A stretch of DNA of 64,000 nucleotides, taken from the NCBI GenBank assembly GCA_963666735.1, contig OY762926.1, forward strand, positions 1,088,001 through 1,152,000, read 5' to 3'. The DNA comes from Gemmatimonadota bacterium. GTDB lineage: Bacteria > Gemmatimonadota > Gemmatimonadetes > Palauibacterales > Palauibacteraceae. A program made the translations under genes and the position numbers. This document shows, one piece after another, positions 14,464-29,752 of this stretch. The notes under the pieces are model-generated. The model saw only the letters and a list, made by a program, of their open reading frames with translations. It was not told the DNA's origin and searched no databases. The number at the start of each line of letters is the position of its first letter. The stretch's first letter is position 1.

Positions 14464-16347
14464 TCAGCGCCGCCACGCCGCCATGTCGGGGAGCCCGTGG
14501 CTGATCATGATTTGGAGACCGGGCTCGGGAGCCTGCGCCTCCGCCGCGCCACGGGCGAGCGAGCCGGCGGGCAGGTGCCGGAAGATCGCGCGTACCTGAC
14601 CCGTCCCCGGATCCCGCACGATCGCCATCGGAGGTTCGCTCCCGCTCGTCATGCCTACGGTTCCGCCCGGCCCGGAGAGGGAGAGGCTCGCCAATTCCGC
14701 CGGCCACGCCTCCTCCACCGGAAGGGCGAAGACGAAGCTCGATCTTCCATCGCCATCGGCGATCTCCGGCATAGCGAAGCTCAGCGAGAACAACTCGCTC
14801 CCGTCGGCGCGCGCGCCCCGCAGCGCGTAGTCGCCGCCGGAGGCGGGCACGACCGGCGGCGCCTCGATGACGAAGGCGGGATCGAGCCGCGGCGTTCCGT
14901 CCGCCGCGACCCGTCCGGAGACGAGGAGCGATCGCGTCGCCGTGGCCGGGACACGGGCGGGCGAGCCCTCGTCCGACACCCGGAAGCGCAGGGAGTTCGT
15001 GAAGTAATAGTCGCTGATCCACTCGGGCGGGCAGTAGCTCATGAGGTCCGCCCAGTCCGGGGGCACGAGCGACCCGCCGTCGCGGGGGTCGTACCCCCAG
15101 GCGCCGGTCGCGGCGTTGGGCCAGGGGAAGGTGGGGTCCGGACCCGCCGCGTTCCCGCAGTCCGCGTGGCGCAGGTTGAAGTTGTGTCCGAGTTCGTGGG
15201 CGATCGTGGACTCGCTGAGCTCCGACACGCTCGTCTTGCCGCCGATCCAGGCGACGCCTGCGGCTCCCTCGAGGTCGGGCATCAGCCCCTTCCAGTGGCC
15301 GGCGCCTCCCTCGATGGCCCGGATCCGCGAGACTTCGCTCAGAACGGCAAACGCGTCATTGAAGTCCAGCCGTACCGGTCGGTACCTCGTGATCTCGAAG
15401 GCGCCGACCGGGAGCAGGTTGTTCGCCTGCCAAAGGATCTCGTGGTCGGGATGGATCTCCGCGACGAGCATCGAGGCGGCGGGATCGCCGTCCCCGCTCC
15501 AGATGAACGGGATCAGCGTGAGTTCGAGGGTAGGCATGGCCCAGACGTCCACGGCCGTCCGTCCGGACTCCGGGATGCGTCGGGCGACGCCCAGCCCCGG
15601 ATCGAGAGTACCGTCTGGATCGATCTCGACGACCATCTCCAGCCCGGGCCGAATCACGTCGCCGGGGATCTCCGCATTCGCCGACAGGTCCAGTTCGCCC
15701 TCCCGCACCTCGGTCGGGATCGCGGACGAACCGGCGGGGATGTCCACCACATGCACTTCCACGTCTTCCAGGAAGAACGTGGCCCGGACCGGCGGCATCG
15801 GCGCGGCGGTCTGCTGTTGGGTCGTGACGAATACGCGGAGCAGCGCGCGCTCCCCGGCGACGAGGGGAACGGGGTAGTCTCGCGACTGCACCGCCTGCGT
15901 CAGATAGGCGTCGGCGGCGCCTCCTGCCCGGCATCGCCGGATGCGCCGTTTCAGGATGGACTCGAGCCAATCCCGAAAGGTGGGCTCGTCCGGCGCGCAC
16001 AGTGCGGTGCCGCCCGCCAGGAACGCCTCGAGACCGAGCGCGGTGAACGTCGCGGGGACAGGTCCCGCAAGCTCGGGATTGTTCTGCAGGTGCAGTTCAT
16101 CGAGCCTGGCCAGGCGACCGAGTTCCGGTGGCAGGGGGCCCGCGAGCATGTTGTCCGCCAGGGAGAGCTGTTCGAGGCGCGCGAGTCGGCCGAGCTGCGG
16201 AGGGAGCGGGCCGGAGAGGCGGTTCCGGTTCAAGTCCAGATACCGCAGCCGCGCGAGTCCGCCCAGCTCCGGCGGGATGGAACCTTCGAGCCGGTTCGCG
16301 GTGAGGTCCAGCCACTCCAGGCGAGTCAGGCCGCCGAGTTCGGGCGG
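14464..16347 (-). pseudogene. 3' half (last LRRs plus M66-like zinc metallopeptidase) of an Ig-LRR-metallopeptidase gene split by the integrative element
   Basis: 24-aa LRRs (LxxLxLxxNxLxGxIPPELG), HELGHNFNLRH zinc motif and DLMSYC Met-turn. No signal peptide. Joins in frame to 28505-29752 through the 15-bp att repeat. Confidence 0.88.
16333..16347. repeat. att core, left copy (GCCGAGTTCGGGCGG)
   Basis: Identical to 28505-28519. In context it reads CCGCC-GAGTTCG-GGCGG: inverted arms around a 7-bp spacer. Confidence 0.9.
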
Positions 16348-16683
16348 AACCGGACTACGCCGACCGAATGTCATTATAACTGATTATCCAATAACGATTT
16401 ATGCGATTCTCTCTTGGGACGATGTATCACTTAAAGTATGCAAATCTGAACGGGAACCCCTTCCATCTTACGGGAGGTCCTCGGACGTAAGCGCGAGCGG
16501 TCAGCGACCGGGGTAGGGCCACGAAAACGCTGTTGATCGCGCGCATCGCGAAGCGCAACCGTCGGCCCCTGCGCCGATGGACAAGAAGCGGCGAGCCCCG
16601 GAGAAAAACGATCCCAGGGAGCAGGTTGTTGTTAACACCTCCCCAAGTTGAGCCTGCTGGTCTGTTTGTCGCCGCAGAGACCG

Positions 16684-17964
16684 TCAACGGACCGAGAGTA
16701 CCACCGCGTGCCTTGTACCGAGTGGATCGATCTCGTAACCGTAGAATCGTCCGTCTCGCGCGTCGGTGAGGACGAACCCGACGGGGACCTCCAGTCGATA
16801 CCGGAACAATCCATCGTACGAGTAGGCGTCCCAGTACCGGGCTGAGCCAGCGAGCACGTCCCAGCCCAACTGGACGGGTATCTCCCTGATCTCGTCCGCG
16901 GTAAGCGGGCGAGCCACCCAAAGGGTCTCCGATGCGCGGTCGAACCTTGCGTCCAGGAACAGCGGGTATCGGTCATTGAATGGCGATGGCTGCCCGGAGC
17001 GGTTCCCAAGCGCCGCGTTCGCCAACTGCCTTGCCACGTCTGGCGGAACCTCCGTGGCGAGACCACCCAACCTCCGTTCCAGACTTCGCATCTGCCTCGC
17101 GAGCCTCGGTTCCCGCATAGCTTCCAAATAGATGCGATCGTCTTCCGACAATTCCATGACGGCGTCTTCCCCGAAGGCGTACCGCGCGAGCATGTTTCCC
17201 GCCAAGTCTCGCACTCGGATGTCGCCCGCCTGACGGTCGAGGATGGCTACCGTACTCTCCCCGGTGCCTTCCACAACGAGCGTTCGGGATGCCCAACCCC
17301 GTCGATCCTCGTCCACGGCCCACGAGAAGGCCGGCTCCATGGCCTCGCCTGTCCACAGGTTGAGACTCATCGTACGCGGCTCGGAGCCGAAGCCCCAACT
17401 CATCACTACGGCACCCAGTACTTTCTCACCGGGAGAAAGCAAGGCCCACGGGACACCCTGAGTGACATCCAGCGGACTCGAATCGAGCCAAGCACGACTC
17501 GGGATGTCGATGATATTCACACGGCGATGACGAACATCCGGCACCCATAGCTTGTCGGCCACGGCCACCGCATGGAGGATGTCCCCGGAAAACTCGCCCG
17601 GCCCCTCTCCGCCCGCCCCGACGCGACCCAACCACTCACCATCGTCATTGAAGAACGAAACGCTGGTGGACAGTCGGTCCACCACGGCAAAGCCGCCGGG
17701 CGTGGCGGCCACCCAAGTCGCGTCGATGATGCCGCGTTGACCCAGTACATCCTCATCCGAAGCAGCCGGAACGCGAGCCTCCAGCACCGCTCGTCGAACC
17801 TGACTGTTGACCGGGTGGACGGTGACCAACGTCGTCGGGGAAGTGTCATCCCGTAGCCCCTGCTGCCGTCCTTGGACTTCCGCCGTCGACAAAATGGCCC
17901 CGAGGATCGAGATCAGCAGGATCACGCGAGAATGCCTTCCCGCCCACGAGGCCGGGATGCTCAC
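16684..17964 (-). CDS. Secreted 6-bladed beta-propeller (NHL/TolB-like) protein
   Basis: Hydrophobic N-terminus, FNDDGEWLGRVGAGGEGPGEF NHL-type motif, WDAYSYDGLFRY, EIDPLG. GTG overlaps the stop of the upstream peptide gene (GTGA). Confidence 0.75.
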   Translation of the reverse strand: MSIPASWAGRHSRVILLISILGAILSTAEVQGRQQGLRDDTSPTTLVTVHPVNSQVRRAVLEARVPAASDEDVLGQRGIIDATWVAATPGGFAVVDRLSTSVSFFNDDGEWLGRVGAGGEGPGEFSGDILHAVAVADKLWVPDVRHRRVNIIDIPSRAWLDSSPLDVTQGVPWALLSPGEKVLGAVVMSWGFGSEPRTMSLNLWTGEAMEPAFSWAVDEDRRGWASRTLVVEGTGESTVAILDRQAGDIRVRDLAGNMLARYAFGEDAVMELSEDDRIYLEAMREPRLARQMRSLERRLGGLATEVPPDVARQLANAALGNRSGQPSPFNDRYPLFLDARFDRASETLWVARPLTADEIREIPVQLGWDVLAGSARYWDAYSYDGLFRYRLEVPVGFVLTDARDGRFYGYEIDPLGTRHAVVLSVR

Positions 17965-28330: not shown

Positions 28331-28486
28331 GGGGTTCCTTCCTCTTTGTGTATCACTTATTGCCGCACTACATCGGGAAGAATACGCCGGATGACGATGG
28401 ATCGCAAGGGACGAGAGAGCGCCGCATATCCTACAGAACACGTTGTCCAATAACGTGTTATGGCCTACTTAATAGATCTTGATGGA

Positions 28487-29752
28487 CTACACTGGAAGAT
28501 GTGTGCCGAGTTCGGGCGGGATCGATCCTTCGAGCAGGTTGTTCCGGGCCCGGAGCAGGCGAAGGTCGGCGAGACTCCCGAACTCGGAGGGGAGAGGGCC
28601 GACGAGTTGGTTGTCGTGCAGGAACAGGCGTTCAAGCTTCTCCAGCTTCCCGAGCTCCCGAGGGATCGCACCCCTGAGGTCGTTCGCGTTCAGCTCCAGC
28701 CGCCGGAGCTCGGTGAGCTCGACCAACTCCGGCGGGATGGGACCCGTAATCCGGTTGTCGTCGAACCGCAGCTGTCTCAGATGCGGGAACCTCCCGATGC
28801 GTGAGGGGATCCGTCCCGACAGGCGGTTGCTGAACAGATGGATGCCACTGACCCTCCCCGACTCGTCGACCTCGATGCCCCACCAGGTATCGAGCGGCGC
28901 ATCCGTCAGCCAGTTCGCCGAGTTGCGCCACCCCGGTCCGCCCAGGGCCTCGTAGAGCACCGCCAGGTCCTGCCGTTCCTCGTTGCACGCCAGCTCCTCT
29001 CCCTCGCGTGACGGGATGGCGGCCAGCCACTCGCGAAACGCCTCGTCGCTCAGCGTGCACAGCATGGTGCCGCCGTAGTGGAGTTGCCGGAGGCCGAGGC
29101 GCGAGAGAGACAGCGGCAACGGGCCCGTGAGGGCGTTTCCGTCCACCCTCAGTTCGGCGAGAAACGAAAGATCCCCGAGGCTCTTCGGAAGTTGGCCGCG
29201 GAGCCCGTTCTCGCCGAGGCGAAGCGCCACGACCCGGCCCTCCATGTTGGCCTCGACGCCGTACCAGTCGCCGAGCGGCGCGTCGCTCCCCCAATTGCCG
29301 CTTGCGGTCCAGTCGTTTCCGTCCGTTGCGCCGTGCAGGTCCATGAGCGGCGCGCGGTCCCGGCTCCGGACGGTCAGGCGCGCGGACGCCGTTGCGGCCC
29401 CCGAGGTCGCGCTGACGCTCGCCCGTCCTTCCCGGAGGCCCGTCGCGAGCCCGGTGGCATCGACGGTGGCGATGTCGGGATCCGCGCTCGTCCAACTCAC
29501 CGGGGCCCCCGAGATCACTCGTGCACGTTCATCCAGGACGTGCGCCGTCATGCGCACCGTGTCTCCCGCAACGACCACGACGGAATCCGGCTCCAGCGTC
29601 ACCGTCGCCGCCTGCGGCGCTGCGGGCGCGGGAGACGGCGGCGGTGAAGTCGCATCGTCGCCGCAGGAGAGGACTGCGAGGAGGGCCGCGAAGGCCCCGG
29701 CCCGGCGCGGCGCACTTGCGCGCGGGAGGCCGGAGAGTCGTCCGCGAGCCAT
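28487..29752 (-). pseudogene. 5' half (lipoprotein signal, Ig-like Big_2 domain, LRRs) of the split Ig-LRR-metallopeptidase gene
   Basis: Lipobox AVLSC, WTSADPDIATVDATG, LRR caps and repeats. Ends GSIPPELG, then THLPV* supplied by the element. Confidence 0.88.
28505..28519. repeat. att core, right copy (GCCGAGTTCGGGCGG)
   Basis: Identical to 16333-16347; encodes PPELG on the minus strand. Confidence 0.9.

Follow-up and report, generated by a model that had tools for sequence, protein, structure and literature searches.

A mobilisable element of a Gemmatimonadota bacterium whose integrase family probably targets the IPPELG codons of leucine-rich-repeat genes

Genomic islands that combine a P4-type integrase with an AlpA protein (CP4-57 type) are usually found at the 3' ends of tRNA or tmRNA genes. 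More generally, the choice of tRNA genes or of single conserved genes by site-specific integrases is attributed to the invariance of such sites and the harmlessness of insertion there. Here, we describe an insert at positions 16348-28504 of a 64,000-nucleotide stretch from a Gemmatimonadota bacterium (GCA_963666735.1, contig OY762926.1, positions 1,088,001 to 1,152,000), referred to below as the window. The insert splits a lipoprotein gene with leucine-rich repeats (LRRs). We read it as an integrative mobilisable element (IME) whose integrase targets the I-P-P-E-L-G codons of LRRs as the normal behaviour of its family, and give this reading a probability of about 0.85.

The element shares several features with the P4/CP4-57-type islands. 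Its integrase has the same domain set (Arm-DNA-bind_3, Phage_int_M and Phage_integrase) and lies at one end, approximately 175 bp from the core; an AlpA-family gene adjoins it and short direct repeats are present at both ends. In contrast to these islands, the family targets the codons of a protein repeat inside many paralogs, and not a tRNA or the end of a single-copy gene. The window element interrupts an open reading frame (ORF) without replacing its end, and the family uses both orientations. Like other IMEs, the element carries a relaxase and a MobC protein without a transfer apparatus.

Other elements rebuild a gene when they leave it, such as skin in sigK of Bacillus subtilis, the comK prophage of Listeria and the nifD, fdxN and hupL elements of Anabaena. 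Similar to these, the window element lies within an ORF that would be whole and in frame again after excision of the element at a short repeat. However, each of the known elements is dedicated to a single target and has a documented trigger in development or infection, whereas the family described here has dozens of targets and a mobilisation module. The insertion sequences (IS) IS1397 and ISKpn1 insert into repeated extragenic palindromes (REP/BIME). The parallel is that many copies per genome of a short, conserved and partly palindromic sequence serve a mobile element as its target. IS1397 and ISKpn1, however, use DDE transposases and non-coding repeats, whereas the window family uses a tyrosine recombinase and a coding repeat that is conserved for its protein motif. 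Finally, the consulted part of a report on dusA- and trmE-targeting islands (10.1101/2021.06.18.448947) likewise describes tyrosine integrases that read a conserved coding sequence instead of a tRNA. In contrast, those islands use the 5' or 3' end of one housekeeping gene and its function is kept, while the elements described here insert at a motif inside the genes of an expanded accessory family and truncate the protein.

No report of an LRR-targeting integrase was found in the portions of the literature reached by full-text searches, subscription journals being outside their coverage. In the consulted part of PMC10469786 the word 'integrase' does not occur, and in that of PMC4755523 LRRs appear only among the references. 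In its content the element is a conventional IME that carries a P4-type tyrosine integrase. New is the class of target: codons for a repeated protein motif, in a family of accessory genes that has expanded. Also new are insertion in many copies and two orientations, and a rule that links the central bases of the core to orientation.

The 15-bp repeat and the interrupted LRR gene

An exact 15-mer, GCCGAGTTCGGGCGG, occurs at 16333-16347 and again at 28505-28519. In the single-contig genome of 3,977,883 bp (G000) these two junction copies are the only exact matches, and a reversed control sequence gave none. With up to two mismatches allowed, the window contained six matches, while shuffled sequences would give 1.5. 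The outer bases of the two copies differ on either side, which fixes the length of the repeat at 15 bp. On the minus strand it encodes P-P-E-L-G. The copy at 16333-16347 is the far-end core copy and forms the junction of the attachment left (attL) type. The copy at 28505-28519 is proximal to the integrase and forms the attR-type junction. A first-pass annotation, made from the sequence alone, had proposed that an exact 15-bp repeat brackets an integrase, AlpA, mobilisation genes and cargo; both copies and the genes between them were confirmed, and the insert between the copies amounts to 12,157 bp.

The two halves of the interrupted gene lie on the minus strand on either side of the element. 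The N-terminal part (28505-29752) starts at 29752 and contains a lipoprotein-like signal, Big_2, LRR cap regions and LRR units. It ends with IPPELG at the junction (...NNLLEGSIPPELG / ...RARNNLLEGSIPPELG), followed by five element-encoded codons and a stop. The C-terminal part (14464-16332) reads ...PPELGGLTRLEWLDL... / ...PPELGGLTRLEWLDLTANRLEGSIPPELG... and has its stop at 14464. It comprises four LRR units and a metallopeptidase domain with an HELGH motif. In the Pfam searches, the N-terminal half matched Big_2 and LRR families and the C-terminal half matched LRR families and, weakly, Peptidase_M66/reprolysin. An ATG in frame with the C-terminal half is supplied by the far end of the element.

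As a reference for colinearity, the intact tandem paralog at 29836-33084 (minus strand, Big_2-LRR-metallopeptidase) was used. By BLASTP, residues 134-525 of the N-terminal half aligned with residues 76-472 of the paralog (225/397 identical), and residues 9-636 of the C-terminal half aligned with residues 467-1128 (384/663 identical, 58%). The two alignments therefore join the halves at one repeat position, with an overlap that consists of the duplicated motif only. This agrees with the earlier proposal that the joined halves are colinear with the paralog. From the reading frames, the insertion is predicted to cut the lipoprotein after LRR unit four to five, with loss of the protease domain. 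The Big_2-LRR-metallopeptidase family is expanded in this genome: nine or more additional loci resemble the C-terminal half of the split gene with protein identities of 33-58%, among them the tandem paralog and window positions 46471-47901. An assignment of the split protein as a type III effector was rejected, because the NCBIfam matches to XopAE, XopAC and XopL were far below their cut-offs and reflect LRR similarity only.

With the DNA that flanks the insert as query, the genomes of the genus were searched for empty sites. Three sister species (G108, G109 and G103) have the orthologous gene uninterrupted, with contiguous flanks and one copy of the core. Nucleotide identities of the two flanks were 95% and 93% in G108, 87% for both in G109, and 85% and 82% in G103. 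In each species the flank matches are separated by a gap of 17 bp, made up of two unmatched query bases and the 15-bp core. G108 and G109 retain 14 of the 15 core bases at their empty sites.

Since LRR arrays are repetitive and many spurious joints with short sides were seen among the contig alignments, a false joining of the element to the LRR gene during assembly had to be considered. Both junctions are crossed by independent contigs of the runs X1, X2 and X15, which come from two studies, and the X15 contigs showed no differences over 13500-16753 and 28433-30500. The same architecture is present in many other assemblies. We regard an assembly artefact as exceedingly improbable, and the concern about misassembled junctions raised in the first-pass annotation was not borne out.

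Insertion sites of related integrases

The integrase was searched in 114 genomes of the window's family at E <= 1e-30. Matches were obtained in 23 of the 35 other genomes of the window's genus, and none at this threshold in the other 19 genera of the family. Among the GTDB representative genomes, 79 further integrase loci were found, in entries titled Candidatus Palauibacter, Longimicrobiales or Gemmatimonadota metagenome-assembled genomes. Integrases entered the junction set from 70% identity upwards (76% being the lowest identity retained), provided that the alignment started at residue 1-2 and the flank measured at least 330 bp. Merging of identical flanks left 93 distinct integrase-proximal junctions.

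Exactly on IPPELG-type codons lay 74 of the 93 junctions, in 74 different LRR units. In 47 cases the insertion is in sense orientation: read on the integrase strand, the flank codes for an LRR unit whose final residues, ...N-x-L-x-G-x-I-P-P-E-L-G, run exactly up to the junction. The other 27 are antisense: here the complementary strand of the flank codes for an LRR unit, and this unit starts P-P-E-L-G at the junction (25 were called by an automatic rule and two, L113 and L122, by eye). No pair of the 74 flanks was at least 85% identical over the 32 nt beyond the motif, and the junctions represent essentially independent targets. The first-pass annotation had suggested the LRR motif of an expanded gene family as the landing pad of the integrase. 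The comparison of homolog flanks, with 74 of 93 junctions at such codons and none of these 74 at a tRNA, supports this, and so do the intact genes of the three sister species.

In four related elements both ends could be read. An LRR gene is split in G112 (15-bp repeat, 8.9 kb), in G092 (15-bp repeat, 7.6 kb), in G107 (13-bp repeat, 7.6 kb) and, in antisense orientation, in G110 (10-bp repeat with one mismatch, approximately 7.9 kb). The far ends were located by the resumption of LRR coding, because far-end homology is almost nil: with the far-end 260 bp of the window element, blastn against related elements returned almost nothing, with one match of 84 bp. A search for exact repeats identified the ends of four to five elements; for the rest it returned chance 10-12-mers.

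Some LRR genes carry more than one element. Head-to-head pairs in adjacent LRR units were found in G107 and G081. In these pairs (L007/L026, G107:C1:1201638-1204388; L028, G081:C36:7451-10343), the integrase genes are approximately 450-590 bp apart in opposite orientations, in adjacent 24-residue LRR units of one gene. In G109, two elements stand in tandem in LRR units 13.4 kb apart. The resemblance of LRR units to one another and the presence of several elements in neighbouring units of one gene would also be compatible with arrival or movement by homologous recombination between similar repeats. However, the junctions fall on the same 11-15 nucleotides with a short duplication whatever the unit, filled and empty sites differ by exactly the element plus one core copy, and antisense insertions are impossible by exchange with a sense repeat. 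Homologous recombination is thus very unlikely as the route of insertion.

It was also considered that the LRR position is a secondary (pseudo-att) site of an integrase that primarily targets a tRNA or a gene present once. Integrases of the P4 type with these domains are mostly found at tRNA genes, and four family members are at non-LRR look-alike sites. Moreover, one of eight distant integrase homologs (41-49% identical), the one at 49%, lies 184 bp from a tRNA-Ser(gga), as is classical for such integrases; none of the eight is at an LRR. Against this, the LRR-targeting clades have 74 of their 78 junctions on the LRR motif and not one at a tRNA, and no tRNA gene was found in window positions 10000-36000. 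As close homologs are at LRRs and distant ones are not, LRR targeting is therefore best read as a derived specialisation and as the primary site of the clade. The junction comparison thus points to the LRR motif as the primary att site of the family and not a secondary one. Judged by the criterion set in the first-pass annotation, the location of close homologs, the secondary-site alternative is refuted, and we consider it highly improbable.

The core and the orientation of insertion

At every junction type the element side keeps GAACT at a fixed distance of 11 nt from a conserved TTCC...GTAGTCCA box. The far arm ends GTT or CTT. Since it ends GTT in the window element, attL of the window reads GTTC-CGCCC-GAAC. 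Judged from the aligned junctions, the core reads as a quasi-palindrome GTTC-N5-GAAC with an asymmetric centre. A different geometry, with 5-bp arms CCGCC and GGCGG around a 7-bp spacer, had been proposed from the window alone. It is absent from the natural empty sites in G108 and G109 and is not conserved at other insertions. As a general core geometry it was ruled out, and the comparison points to GTTC-N5-GAAC instead.

The five bases in front of GAAC were CGCCC, CGCCG or CGGCC at all 47 sense junctions. A centre of the complementary type (CGGCG, GGGCG, CGGAG and similar) was found at 26 of the 27 antisense junctions. The exception, L111 (CGCCG), is in a P-A-E-L-G unit whose antisense strand carries that pentamer, and so it fits the rule. 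The central bases track orientation in all 74 junctions; orientation is therefore given by the LRR-motif strand that agrees with the asymmetric centre. That central asymmetric bases act as the strand-exchange overlap is an established principle for tyrosine recombinases, and the observed pattern would be expected if the core centre has this role here. In a quick tree, closely related integrases occur in both orientations, and this would fit a control of orientation by the attP core of the element rather than by the integrase protein.

In G000, 23 sites are within one mismatch of the 15-mer. The LRR bias is stronger than the 15-mer alone predicts, because only 6 of these 23 near-core sites are LRR units. 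Upstream bases (the G-x-I codons), which are conserved in the flanks, probably contribute to the choice of site. The same genome contains 69 G-x-I-P-P-E-L-G-like units, of which 1, 5 and 17 match the 15-mer with 0, 1 and 2 mismatches, respectively. Thus further landing pads exist.

From these comparisons we propose the following course of events. The P4-type tyrosine integrase would recombine the core of attP with the DNA that codes for the LRR consensus I-P-P-E-L-G. On the sense strand of the gene the core is CCGCCCGAACTCGGC, preceded by GTT of the far arm. The insertion duplicated 15 bp and split the Big_2-LRR-metallopeptidase lipoprotein gene in frame. Elements enter in sense or antisense orientation, depending on the strand on which the LRR motif agrees with the five central bases. 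In sponge-associated Gemmatimonadota of the Candidatus Palauibacter type, an integrase clade of approximately 79-97% identity uses the motif across a wide range of LRR genes. Such a target probably has the advantage of being multi-copy, kept constant by the function of the protein and expendable in each single copy. The AlpA-family protein may act as excisionase, and mobilisation would presumably depend on a helper conjugative system.

Several points weigh against this reading or limit it. In the LRR-targeting clades, 4 of 78 junctions are at non-LRR look-alike sites. Another 15 of the 93 junctions belong to two sister clades, approximately 76-83% identical to the window integrase, with other, unexplained flanks. 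The flank pair L013/L077 may be a single inherited insertion, and the junctions were drawn from GTDB representatives of related species, so that the counts are not a random sample. The positions of cleavage and the protein-DNA contacts are inferred, and the integrase tree is a quick one and not a finished careful one. An excised circle, an empty site of this strain or a joint of 16332/16347 to 28505/28520 was not among the 15 joints listed, out of 60, from contigs of four runs over 13500-30500, and contigs drop rare variants. Furthermore, this copy may be impaired for transfer, with two IS inside and the end of its relaxase gene replaced.

Some features of these other sites were noted. L104 (G085:C63) and L143 (G081:C51) occupy the same non-LRR site in an autotransporter-like gene of two species, with a core-like GTTC/ATTC-CGGTA-GAAC. 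Many of the sister-clade flanks (L123-L133, L150, L065, L017 and L074) have a common ...GCAGATCGTGCAGTCC(N3-4)TTGAACTC..., which resembles the far-arm end plus core; the shared flanks may be tandem arrays or attP-like joints. The junction of L125 lies inside a perfect GAGTTCA-GT-TGAACTC palindrome at a gene end. Integrases with LRR flanks were also found on contigs of 2.8-65 kb (L084, L100, L106, L109, L153, L094, L130 and L116) in bins named Gammaproteobacteria, Acidobacteria or Binatia, and these contigs may be mis-binned multi-copy elements.

Content of the element and its movement

From the integrase end, the element contains the integrase, a small conserved ORF, an AlpA-family helix-turn-helix (HTH) gene, MobC/NikA, a relaxase, an MbeD/MobD-like gene and four ORFs without family. 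All of these are encoded on the minus strand. The integrase-proximal arm (28331-28504) carries a TTCCAGTGTAGTCCA box 7 nt from the core that is conserved across the family. The tyrosine integrase (27173-28330, 385 aa) matched the three Pfam domains named above (Phage_integrase at E 8e-19) and phrog_1 integrase. The following unit, 26286-26870, comprises the conserved small ORF (26601-26870) and, behind it, the AlpA-family HTH gene (approximately 26286-26600; PF05930, E 4e-20), a putative excisionase or regulator.

The mobilisation module consists of three genes. A MobC/NikA-like relaxosome accessory protein is encoded at 25753-26319, with a likely start at 26091. It is followed by an MbeA-like relaxase at 24600-25784 (PF03432; the best NCBIfam match was relax_MbeA_E1 with 92 bits, below cut-off), and an MbeD/MobD-like coiled-coil gene at 22978-23304 (PF04899, E 8e-6). 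None of the 13 element ORFs scanned matched a type IV secretion system (T4SS) or coupling-protein family. With a relaxase, MobC/NikA and an MbeD-like protein, but no T4SS or coupling protein, the element is therefore an IME by content. The first-pass annotation had listed an origin of transfer (oriT). GC-rich inverted repeats were found upstream of mobC at 26111-26156, and no oriT or nick site was identified. The order of the mobilisation module is the same in related elements with flanks long enough to read, while the cargo differs.

Related sequences are present elsewhere in the genome. Paralogous MobC-relaxase-MbeD modules lie at G000:C1 approximately 201,400-203,200 (relaxase 79% identical in protein) and approximately 3,708,100-3,709,350 (71%). 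They are without a close integrase copy, and other members of this IME backbone therefore use other integration modules. At L002 (G000:C1:3966736-3966861) a 45-residue N-terminal integrase remnant, 93% identical, stands with part of the upstream arm next to a flank that is not obviously LRR; it is probably a decayed second copy of the element.

The cargo lies towards the far end, on the minus strand. It comprises a lipoprotein-like ORF of 480 aa (21180-22622), an ORF of 246 aa with a signal-peptide-like start (18499-19239), a small Cys-rich, signal-peptide-like ORF of 141 aa (17961-18386) and an ORF of 470 aa (16684-18096). These four and the small ORF by alpA gave no match in Pfam, NCBIfam, PADLOC or PHROGs, except for one weak NHL-like NCBIfam match of the 470-aa ORF. 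The region of this ORF (window 16677-17969) has a paralog with 87% nucleotide identity at G000:C1:3368167-3369460, outside any copy of the element. Two motifs of the far-end arm (16348-16560), one of 10 bp at 16387 and one of 11 bp at 16423, recur in the integrase-proximal arm as direct repeats. They were obtained by comparison across the arms, while a repeat search within each arm alone gave nothing useful. The two motifs may be arm-type integrase sites.

Two secondary IS are inserted in the element, both on the plus strand. The first (19322-21202) encodes a DDE_Tnp_1_4 transposase at 19446-20972 and has five other copies in the genome (99.8-99.9% identity). The second (23327-24629) belongs to the IS3 family, with orfA at 23362-23694 and an rve-domain orfB ending at 24542, and has seven other copies. 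It lies between the relaxase and MbeD-like genes, where the spacing in IS-free relatives is approximately 25 bp, and it supplies the last approximately 10 codons of the relaxase. Contigs of the runs X1, X2 and X4 join 19320 to 21198, thus some are without the DDE_Tnp_1_4 element, and contigs of X1 and X2 join 23323 to 24630 and lack the IS3-family element. IS-free forms therefore coexist in the sampled populations, and both IS insertions are recent.

Excision at the 15-bp repeat would restore the intact reading frame, in a layout identical to the ortholog in G108. Both halves of the gene are still open, the integrase is intact and an AlpA-family gene is present. These features could indicate that the element is a dedicated regulatory switch of this surface gene, similar to skin in sigK or to the comK prophage, with a timed excision that turns the LRR protease on. 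However, the family is found in 74 different LRR units, in both orientations and sometimes twice per gene, as a parasite on a repeated target would be and not a switch of one gene. The mobilisation module implies horizontal spread, and an excision product was not seen among the listed joints of the contigs, which drop rare variants. We therefore consider a dedicated switch unlikely. Of the comparison with skin and comK made in the first-pass annotation, the restoration of the frame holds geometrically; a single dedicated target does not, as the family hits many genes in both orientations. In keeping with an IME, integrases are 96-97% identical in species whose orthologous LRR gene is only approximately 75% identical in DNA. 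Recent horizontal spread is therefore indicated, consistent with the mobilisation module.

Invariance of the target is in this family provided by a protein motif that is repeated dozens of times per genome in an expanded family of individually dispensable genes. The element can thus land safely in many places, and several copies can build up, at times in a single gene. Two questions become testable: in what way a tyrosine recombinase recognises a degenerate coding target, and whether the orientation of integration can be flipped through the centre of a near-palindromic core. With its short, multi-copy and programmable-looking target, such an integrase may also be useful as a tool. A third testable question concerns a possible modulation of the LRR ("eukaryote-like") surface proteins in sponge symbionts by mobile elements. 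Going further, we tentatively put forward, with low confidence, that IPPELG-targeting elements switch and reshuffle the LRR surface repertoire of the symbionts. Such an integrase family, radiating in these bacteria, would combine a many-copy, quasi-palindromic att site, orientation set by the central bases, reversible insertion and excision, and recombination between elements located in different LRR genes. If this is true, mobile DNA would drive variation in proteins that are thought to mediate contact with the host.

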